Positions 8,401-9,721 of a DNA stretch of 64,000 nucleotides are shown one piece after another. Every line of letters begins with the position of its first letter. Within the stretch, counting starts at the first letter, position 1. The notes under the pieces are model-generated. The model searched no databases. It was not told the origin of the DNA and saw nothing but the letters and a program-made list of their open reading frames with translations. This DNA comes from a virus (Duplodnaviria > Heunggongvirae > Uroviricota > Caudoviricetes). The position numbers and the translations under genes are program-made. The stretch lies in the IMG/VR virus record IMGVR_UViG_2713896908_000007. One strand, written 5' to 3'.

Positions 8401-8855
8401 GTAAACCCGCCAGTGGGCGTGCCGTATTGTCTCAGGAACAGGATGGCATCAAGTCGCACACCCACAGTGCCAGCGCATCAAATACTGACCTCGGTACTAA
8501 AACGACCAGCTCATTTGATTACGGGACAAAAACGGTCAGCACGTTTAACCACGGTACAAAAACGACAAACAATACAGGAGCGCATACGCATACTGTCGGT
8601 GGTCGTTACGGTGGTGACTCCATCGGGGGTAAACAACGCGTACAGGTATCAGGAACCAACCAGGTGTCAAGCTCTGCCGGAGCACATGCCCATACTGTCG
8701 ATATTGGTCAGCATAACCACACCGTAGGTATTGGTGCCCATGCGCACACTGTGGCATTGGGTGCGCACGGACATACCATCACGGTTAACGCTACTGGTAA
8801 TGCGGAAAACACCGTAAAAAACATTGCATATAACTATATTGTGAGGCTTGCATGA
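5424..8855 (+). CDS. S: Tail fibre protein (S-like, 1143 aa)
   Basis: ATG 5424 with AAGGA 8 nt upstream; tandem ~45-aa fibre repeats (..[32 protein letters not shown].. / ..[32 protein letters not shown]..); [18 protein letters not shown]-type motifs; C-terminal GAHxH repeats. Confidence 0.9.
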
Positions 8856-9721
8856 TTAAGTTAATTCTTTCAGCGCCAGTACATGAAATGGCTGAAGCAT
8901 TTAAGCGGGTATTCGCAAATGCAGATAATGTGGATGTTGTAGAAAAAACATTTGAAGCAATCCCGGAATTTGACTGCATGGTCAGTGCGGCAAACAGTTT
9001 CGGGCTAATGGATGGCGGCGTTGACGCTGCCATTACTGCATTCTTTGGTACTCAGTTACAGACACGTGTTCAGAATCATATTCTTCGTGAATATCTTGGT
9101 GAGCAGCCTGTAGGCACTGCATTTGTTATTGAAACGGGGGATAACAACCATCCCTGGCTGGTACATGCGCCAACAATGCGCGTTCCGCTGACCATTGACG
9201 GAACAGACGCTGTATATAACGCCACGTGGGCTGCTTTACTTGCCATCTTTCAGCACAATAAAAATGCAACGACAGACAGGAAAATAAAGACGGTGGTATT
9301 CCCTGCAATGGGGGCCGGATGTGGTCAGGTGCCGTTTGAAAGTGTTGCCCGGCAGATGAAGCAGGCATGGGATAACTTTAATAAAAAAACAGAAGCAATT
9401 AACTGGGAATACGCACACTCCCGCCAGTTGGCAGTATTTAATACATGCGCGTACTGCCCGGGTACTCCTGTTTGTCGTTATGCGGATATTAAATATATTG
9501 GACTTGGCGATTACCGGACGTATTGCTTACGGTCGGGGCAGGTATGCATTAATCCTGAACATCAGGTTGATGACGTGCTGACTAATAATCGTTCTCGCCC
9601 GGGGGCGCATATGCATCAGATTAATCCGGTAAAATCCGTAGGTAATATTGCCATTGGCGCACACAGCCACGGAAGGAATATCACCATTGGTGCTCATTCC
9701 CATACCCCACATAAACAATAA
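8852..9721 (+). CDS. Macro-domain protein with C-terminal tail-fibre-like GAHxH repeats (289 aa)
   Basis: ATGA overlap with fibre stop; macro signature [23 protein letters not shown] and [16 protein letters not shown]; C-terminus GAHMHQ..GAHSHG..GAHSHT resembles fibre C-terminus. Confidence 0.75.

Follow-up and report, generated by a model that had tools for sequence, protein, structure and literature searches.

Macro-domain enzymes are emerging as tools with which phages counter host defense. One such enzyme is AdfM (gp104 of phage PhiKZ), whose action against DarTG2 was reported in 2026: it reverses the ADP-ribosylation of DNA by DarT2, packaging fails in its absence, and it is DarG2-like, with a catalytic Asn/Lys pair (PMC13309987). 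Tail fiber assembly chaperones of the Tfa type have in turn been described, in a summary of work on Mu Tfa, as consisting of a variable N-terminal domain that binds the fiber and a conserved C-terminal domain that trimerizes (PMC9608196). Here, we analyzed an open reading frame (ORF) in which a macro domain is joined to fiber-like sequence. It lies between tail fiber gene S and the chaperone gene U/Tfa in a 64,000-nucleotide stretch of DNA (hereafter, the window) from IMG/VR virus record IMGVR_UViG_2713896908_000007, a P1-like phage-plasmid of the Caudoviricetes. We think it somewhat probable that the ORF encodes a late ADP-ribose hydrolase, probably serving counter-defense, which is accessory to the phage and is carried in a cassette formed by the fiber tip and its chaperone.

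The role we propose resembles that of AdfM, which is likewise a phage macro enzyme in counter-defense and provides a functional precedent for importance late in infection. However, the two proteins have no detectable sequence similarity, and we rejected membership in the AdfM group (BLASTP E 29 against PhiKZ gp104); in phage PhiPA3, AdfM (gp108) occurs alongside gp271, a distinct relative of the window protein. Membership in DarG was rejected as well, the PADLOC DarG model having matched 39 residues only (E 0.0035). Much closer relatives have already been deposited in databases. The exact window protein is WP_059221985.1 in RefSeq, named 'macro domain-containing protein'; the family is PHROG 2613, labeled "unknown function"; STM2588.1n of Gifsy-1 is annotated with pfam01661 in the same position between fiber and Tfa; SEN5_19 is named 'macro domain-containing protein'; and Chuche CDS0053 is 91% identical to the window protein. 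All four proteins belong to one family (67-100% identity), occupy the same slot with the same ATGA start, and share the macro domain, a Cys-rich segment, and an HxH tail. They differ in the number of HxH motifs and in how the tail ends, and the Salmonella forms (274 amino acids [aa]) overlap the start of Tfa. The original prediction, made from the sequence of this locus alone, knew of no macro domain described in a receptor-binding locus, which is wrong at the level of databases. The family is well conserved and catalogued; our literature searches turned up neither a functional study of it nor any article dealing with macro genes in fiber loci. It is far more common in Escherichia coli and Salmonella prophages than AdfM-type genes are.

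A three-layer alpha/beta/alpha macro fold for the N-terminal half of the protein is supported by profile searches and by structure prediction, the latter a check that the original prediction had proposed. Pfam Macro (PF01661) matched residues 44-169 over the whole of its length (model positions 1-118 of 118) (70 bits, cut-off 22; E 2.2e-19), and both motifs that had been quoted as macro signatures are present (V44-G66 and V148-E163). We modeled the full-length protein with AlphaFold2 from a 19-sequence alignment, obtaining a mean predicted local distance difference test score (pLDDT) of 59, which is moderate to poor, and all 50 of the listed Foldseek matches of this model in the PDB were macro-fold chains. 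The top match was yeast Ymx7 (YMR087W), an ADP-ribose-1''-monophosphatase (1njr, E 2.4e-8), followed by Thermus TTHA0132 (2dx6) and hydrolases designed from its scaffold, YmdB, MacroD2, and OiMacroD. Ymx7 and TTHA0132, both MacroD-like macro domains, are the best structural and sequence matches (phmmer E 5e-5), and they share with the window protein the loops N-x6-GG-V-[D/A] and G-x-G-x-G. Unlike it, they are cellular proteins, are only 17-28% identical to it, and do not carry the C-terminal Cys/HxH extension.

Enzymes of the MacroD type (YmdB, MacroD1/2, Af1521) have a catalytic loop of the form N-x6-G-G-[VLI]-D, and the window protein has this loop as N48-x6-G55-G56-V57-D58 (x6 = SFGLMD). 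The second MacroD loop, G-[VIA]-[YF]-G, is absent; in its place is G154-A-G-C-G158-Q, which is like the GTGVGG of TTHA0132. Residues N48, G55, G56, V57, D58, G154, A155, G156, and G158 are invariant in 19 homologs, down to 65% identity. None of the NCBIfam equivalog models for O-acetyl-ADP-ribose deacetylase and ADP-ribose-binding proteins reached its cut-off (23-52 bits versus cut-offs of 200-315). Across 31 distinct alleles, the ratio of nonsynonymous to synonymous substitution rates (dN/dS) in the macro domain (residues 1-195) was 0.12-0.14, so the enzyme part is under strong purifying selection.

We compared the locus with those of related phages, as the original prediction had recommended, and the macro gene is a clean insertion. 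In the P2-like phage STYP1, the last 200 aa of the fiber are 91.5% identical to those of S, and the Tfa protein is 64% identical to the window Tfa overall and ~90% identical in the N-terminal 60 aa. The fiber and Tfa genes of STYP1 abut directly, with nothing between them. Because window positions 8246-8856 and 9745-9990 align to contiguous STYP1 DNA, the 888-bp stretch between them (8857-9744), which STYP1 does not have, is an insert whose position coincides exactly with the boundary between the two genes. The same tip is found at 92% identity, again without a macro gene, in the T4-like phage PTE-Eco15, and a close macro homolog is present in only 6 of the 585 phage records that carry the S tip type. 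Judged by these genomes, the fiber/Tfa pair can dispense with the macro gene.

The insertion site also offers an account of how the gene may have spread. In all of the loci examined, the fibers upstream of the macro gene are near-identical over their last 50-60 residues and widely different in their proximal parts. The C-terminal end of the fiber and the N-terminal, fiber-binding domain of Tfa would be a co-adapted pair that must be inherited together, so a gene lodged between them would be carried along whenever phages swap fiber tips, and such swapping would have spread it over P1-like, P2-like, and lambdoid genomes. The mosaic pattern of these loci thus points to hitchhiking with the fiber-tip cassette. 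More generally, a gene between a fiber tip and its cognate chaperone would move with every host-range swap, a simple route for accessory genes across unrelated phages. We did not use the linkage of tail type, fiber end, and Tfa type as evidence of physical interaction, the three being adjacent and co-inherited.

The sequence at the start of the gene bears on when the protein would be made. The ORF begins on the stop codon of the 1,143-aa fiber and stands immediately before U/Tfa, both as originally predicted, although the gap to the chaperone is 24 nucleotides by the RefSeq start at 9746 and not 25 bp. The start that we used for S likewise matches the RefSeq annotation of near-identical plasmids. 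The sequence CATGA is present at the S/macro junction in the window and in all 38 of the related loci listed, an overlap implying translational coupling of the two genes. The motif TTGCTCTAATAAATT, which we take to be the Lpa box of P1 late promoters, has 18 matches in the window with at most 3 mismatches, compared with 3.1 expected (18 was reached in 0 of 100 shuffles). Two of the matches are perfect, and examples lie at 39080-39094 (+), 42212-42226 (-), and 22325-22339 (-); on the + strand, there is no match upstream of position 39,080. Because the macro gene starts within the stop codon of S, it is most simply read as a coupled member of a long late tail operon.

The fiber-ATGA-macro-Tfa arrangement also occurs in lambdoid Gifsy-1, in the P2-like phages SEN4/5 and Chuche, and in lambdoid E. 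coli prophages. Of 5426 complete E. coli genomes, 128 contain a macro homolog, and Salmonella records with one are very numerous. Beyond this group, an exhaustive search of cluster representatives returned 2386 related clusters. Nearly all of the listed cluster matches cover the macro region only (query residues to ~195), most of them being proteins of ~200 aa, and the C-terminal extension is limited among them to an enterobacterial group. Tail-less relatives of ~60% identity occur in phage accessory regions, whether upstream of lysis cassettes, among early genes, or beside genes for ParB, a methyltransferase, and terminase, and by their gene neighborhoods, most of the close relatives that we examined are in such locations. 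Another ~60%-identity relative, a 216-aa protein ending in ...GDHDHSYYLNQ (P0272, locus L057, 4001-4651), lies in the baseplate operon of a phiTE/E217-like myovirus, flanked by a Pam3_gp18-like gene and by E217_gp41-like and Apex spike genes; this operon is a second, independent tail-operon home of the macro clade. Some distant relatives in jumbo phages and Rhizobium phages are labeled 'tail assembly-like protein', and we considered and rejected the idea that they are macro-Tfa fusions: the relatives so labeled stand on their own as macro proteins (178-215 aa), with non-structural genes around them, and the labels look like propagated annotation. A 99-aa gene with a weak Pfam match to the Acb2/Tad1 hairpin (a family of anti-CBASS/anti-Thoeris sponges) lies ~2 kb downstream of one of the tail-less macro relatives of ~60% identity, beyond the lysis genes (L059, 6621-6920).

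HxH motifs form the metal sites around which fiber tips trimerize, as in T4 gp37 and R-pyocin fibers. The fibers T4 gp37, P2 H, lambda Stf, and P1 S all have GxHxH repeats. The window protein has GAHxH at residues 251, 269, and 280, and at least three copies arose in 0 of 200,000 shuffles of the protein. These three repeats had been predicted, as had their likeness to the end of the upstream fiber. The S tip contains GAHTH, GAHAH, GQHNH, GAHAH, and GAHGH in residues 1052-1117, and the tail of the macro protein is collinear with it (TNN..GAHxH...IGAHxH), with 35% identity over 60 aa (E 9e-6 for a single comparison). In one homolog (P0280), the tail (FDYGTKITNTTGAHTHT...GSHNHSINIG...GTHTHS) is collinear with the homolog's own fiber (FDYGSKSTDVQGEHTHT...GSHAHSVWIG...GGHSHT; E 2e-11). 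By these alignments, the HxH tail is a diverged and truncated copy of the distal region of a fiber, fused in frame to the macro gene.

The tail nonetheless departs from HxH fibers in several respects. Its three repeats are spaced by 18 and 11 residues rather than 9, its histidines are not conserved, and it scores below the Pfam Phage_fiber cut-off (PF03335, cut-off 20; 8.4 bits, E 3.8), compared with 25 bits (E 1.6e-5) for the S tip. The invariant fiber end, (F/Y)NYIVRLA, is missing from every macro tail and present in every adjacent fiber. The macro protein also has neither the N-terminal attachment region nor the shaft of a fiber, its first 195 residues being the macro domain. Of the two possibilities that had been raised for this ORF, an alternative fiber tip is therefore rejected on account of the tail's missing parts, its failure to match the Pfam repeat, and the decay of its histidines. 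The other, a macro enzyme that captured a 3' fragment of a fiber gene, fits the data well, with an anti-defense function as its conjectural part.

The Cys-rich segment that joins the two parts is specific to the macro lineage of fiber loci. When we searched 50,697 phage records by tblastn, the Cys-rich/HxH segment was found in no fiber gene, and only in macro ORFs and in an orphan fragment of SEN34 (L004, 5001-5198). This fragment is homologous to the Cys-rich segment only (55% identity to residues 184-255). It lies beside an O-acetyltransferase gene, downstream of the fiber and Tfa genes, and shares part of its length with a hypothetical ORF annotated at 73 aa. It probably remains from a macro gene that was deleted. 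An AlphaFold2 model of residues 190-289 (30 sequences) had a pLDDT of 47 and placed a small beta meander at 200-233 with low confidence.

Constraint on the protein relaxes toward its C terminus, where dN/dS was 0.22 in the Cys-rich part (residues 196-240) and 0.43 in the HxH part (residue 241 to the end). Tail length and motif number differ between lineages. In 300-aa alleles, a change of the stop codon from TAA to TAT adds 11 residues, up to a TAG inside the ribosome-binding site of Tfa. The same fiber-Tfa slot is also occupied by homologs with no HxH motif (P0283, 203 aa) or one (P0293, 218 aa), and in a rough neighbor-joining tree, without bootstrap, the tail-less 203-aa forms nest inside the tail-bearing clade. 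Taken at the sequence level, the tail is under weaker constraint and can shorten or vanish while the gene stays in the locus.

We therefore return to the proposal of an accessory late hydrolase. Under this proposal, the product would be a functional macro-domain enzyme that binds ADP-ribose and is probably a hydrolase, and it would not be a component of the fiber. Its gene would have entered the fiber/chaperone junction and become fused in frame to a distal fiber fragment, and the resulting C-terminal extension may lead to metal-dependent oligomerization. With translation coupled to S in the late tail operon, the protein would be made late in the lytic cycle and would most likely act in the cytoplasm, at a stage that leaves late proteins and DNA packaging exposed. 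There, it would either free a macromolecule of ADP-ribose or break down a metabolite that an NAD+-dependent host defense makes from ADP-ribose. We infer a role in counter-defense because relatives are located in accessory regions, because macro domains reverse ADP-ribosylation, and because AdfM provides a precedent. If so, the gene would be one more accessory hydrolase, and its tail would be mostly history.

Several points weigh against this proposal. A glycine takes the place of the MacroD aromatic residue (G-A-G-C-G), so competence as a hydrolase is not assured; both AlphaFold2 models are of low confidence; and no member of the family has any reported activity, substrate, or phenotype. Late expression would be odd timing for most counter-defense functions. 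The recurrence of the clade in tail operons, both in the fiber-Tfa slot in several forms and in the baseplate operon described above, exceeds what would be expected of pure hitchhiking. In addition, in-frame HxH- and Cys-rich tails of different sequence recur (P0280, P0282), which, together with a tail dN/dS below 1, suggests that the tail is selected for something. An enzyme fused to a metal-binding fragment of a fiber tip may have acquired a ready-made, chaperone-assisted module for trimerization or tethering.

These last points are what give weight to an alternative that we consider unlikely, namely, that the enzyme is borne on the virion. The HxH tail, assisted by Tfa, would form a metal-bridged trimer or dock on the fiber tip or the Tfa cap, and the enzyme would act at or just after adsorption. 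Such a role would explain why the gene of the fiber loci is always in late tail operons and translationally coupled to the fiber, and it is in keeping with the baseplate/spike-operon relative ending in GDHDHS, with the recurring tails and their sub-neutral dN/dS, and with the established part of HxH sites in fiber tips. However, the tail is not needed in the slot, since homologs with no or one HxH motif occupy it, and common alleles no longer have all of the motif histidines (GAHTHT to GTPTHT or GAPTHT; GAHSHG to GAYNHG), whereas fibers keep every one of theirs. The tail also lacks the fiber end that normally precedes Tfa and falls short of the fiber-repeat profile; it is disordered in the AlphaFold2 monomer (pLDDT below 40). 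A protein at the fiber tip would not enter the cell, and no ADP-ribose substrate is known outside it; our literature search found no virion proteomics (the SEN4/5 paper has none). Still more doubtful is the specific version in which Tfa folds the HxH/Cys tail into a metal-bridged trimer on the phage tail or fiber and the hydrolase is carried to the next host. If this were true, ADP-ribosylating defenses could be countered before any phage gene is expressed, and the baseplate-operon relative would have solved the same problem in another way.

It is improbable that the protein instead aids fiber/Tfa assembly as a maturation factor, such as one that supplies the HxH sites with metal or takes a modification off the fiber. 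Such a function would suit a protein with a His- and Cys-rich tail whose gene lies between those of the fiber and the chaperone and is co-expressed with them. Yet P2-like, T4-like, and other P1-like phages exist that have near-identical tips with matching Tfa proteins and no macro gene, and the strongly conserved part of the protein is the macro domain, which it has in common with relatives outside tail loci.

A lysogenic conversion gene (moron), expressed from the prophage and acting on host physiology or virulence, is if anything a slightly poorer explanation. Conversion genes are often found downstream of fiber genes, as are pagK and gogB in Gifsy-1 and cdtABC in an E. coli prophage, and the window itself has a glycosyltransferase and an acetyltransferase gene nearby. 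Against this, we found no sigma-70-like site upstream of the macro ORF and no terminator-like site on the + strand, so the insert is not flanked by a promoter and terminator of its own as a moron would be, and its start codon is embedded in the stop codon of S. The macro gene is also on the strand of the late operon, whereas the conversion genes of the window are on the opposite strand and have a G+C content of 0.33-0.35, compared with 0.46. Finally, an untranslated or decaying remnant of a fiber 3' duplication, which the original prediction had named as a finding that would overturn it, is very improbable: 2 of ~40 loci (L051, L053) are frameshifted, as are the tails of some database proteins (P0285, P0295), but the selection on the macro domain contradicts a dead remnant, and an intact ORF with its ATGA start has been kept across P1-like, P2-like, and lambdoid phages and across genera.

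The coordinates of the locus and of the genes that follow it are collected in Table 1.

Table 1. Features of the macro gene locus and its downstream neighbors (window positions).
Feature	Position	Strand	Details
Tail fiber gene S	5424-8855	+	1143 aa from ATG at 5424, TGA stop
S distal HxH block and conserved fiber end	8577-8852	+	Five GxHxH motifs
Macro ORF	8852-9721	+	289 aa, ATG start, TAA stop at 9719-9721
ATGA overlap, macro start codon on S stop codon	8852-8855	+	From the sequence
Inserted cassette, 888 bp	8857-9744	+	Missing from phage STYP1
Macro domain, residues 1-195	8852-9436	+	Pfam, alignment, Foldseek, dN/dS
Cys-rich segment, residues 196-245	9437-9586	+	C199, C202, C208, C225, C232, H237
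Fiber-derived HxH tail, residues 246-289, and stop	9587-9721	+	GAHMH, GAHSH, GAHSH
Spacer, 24 nucleotides	9722-9745	+	Holds Tfa ribosome-binding site AGAGG at 9736-9740
U/Tfa tail fiber assembly chaperone	9746-10324	+	192 aa, ATG at 9746 (RefSeq start)
GT4 glycosyltransferase	10379-11527	-	RefSeq 'lipopolysaccharide N-acetylglucosaminyltransferase'
Hexapeptide acetyltransferase	11514-12065	-	Downstream of U/Tfa
Small ORF with weak helix-turn-helix (HTH) match	12090-12419	-	After acetyltransferase

The U/Tfa product matches Pfam Caudo_TAP (E 4.7e-32), and window positions 7800-10400 are 100% identical to P1-like plasmids of Escherichia albertii from wild birds (NZ_CP117651.1, CP045689.1). The homology of S to P1 ends at ~6942-6961, the end of the constant part Sc, and the variable part is of different origin. 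Over window positions 6942-12500, the invertible C-segment of P1 (Sv'/U') and the cin recombinase gene are replaced by a fixed Sv-macro-U arrangement. The three genes that follow U/Tfa have a G+C content of 0.33-0.35, compared with 0.47 for the window, and together they look like a conversion module for lipopolysaccharide modification in the place of the host-range switch. Similar pairs of glycosyltransferase and acetyltransferase genes follow Tfa in two other loci (L060 and L061). Near the end of the P1 Sc homology, positions 6779-6790 read ATACCTTGGTTT, one mismatch from the Cin/Gin-type crossover core AAACCNNGGTTT. As a relic cix(R) site this is a weak match, not above chance in the window (5 matches versus 2.7 expected).

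Two further observations concern other parts of the window. Compared with NZ_CP117630.1 and NZ_CP117651.1, the window has lost 64 bp between direct repeats of 8 bp (junction near 4477-4484). The deletion lies within positions 4124-4899, where it frameshifts a 278-aa tail-region gene into ORFs 4124-4507 and 4459-4899, and the phage copy in the window may be defective as a result. On the - strand, positions 16343-17446 hold gldA, a glycerol/1,2-propanediol dehydrogenase gene by the annotation of an identical plasmid, as metabolic cargo.

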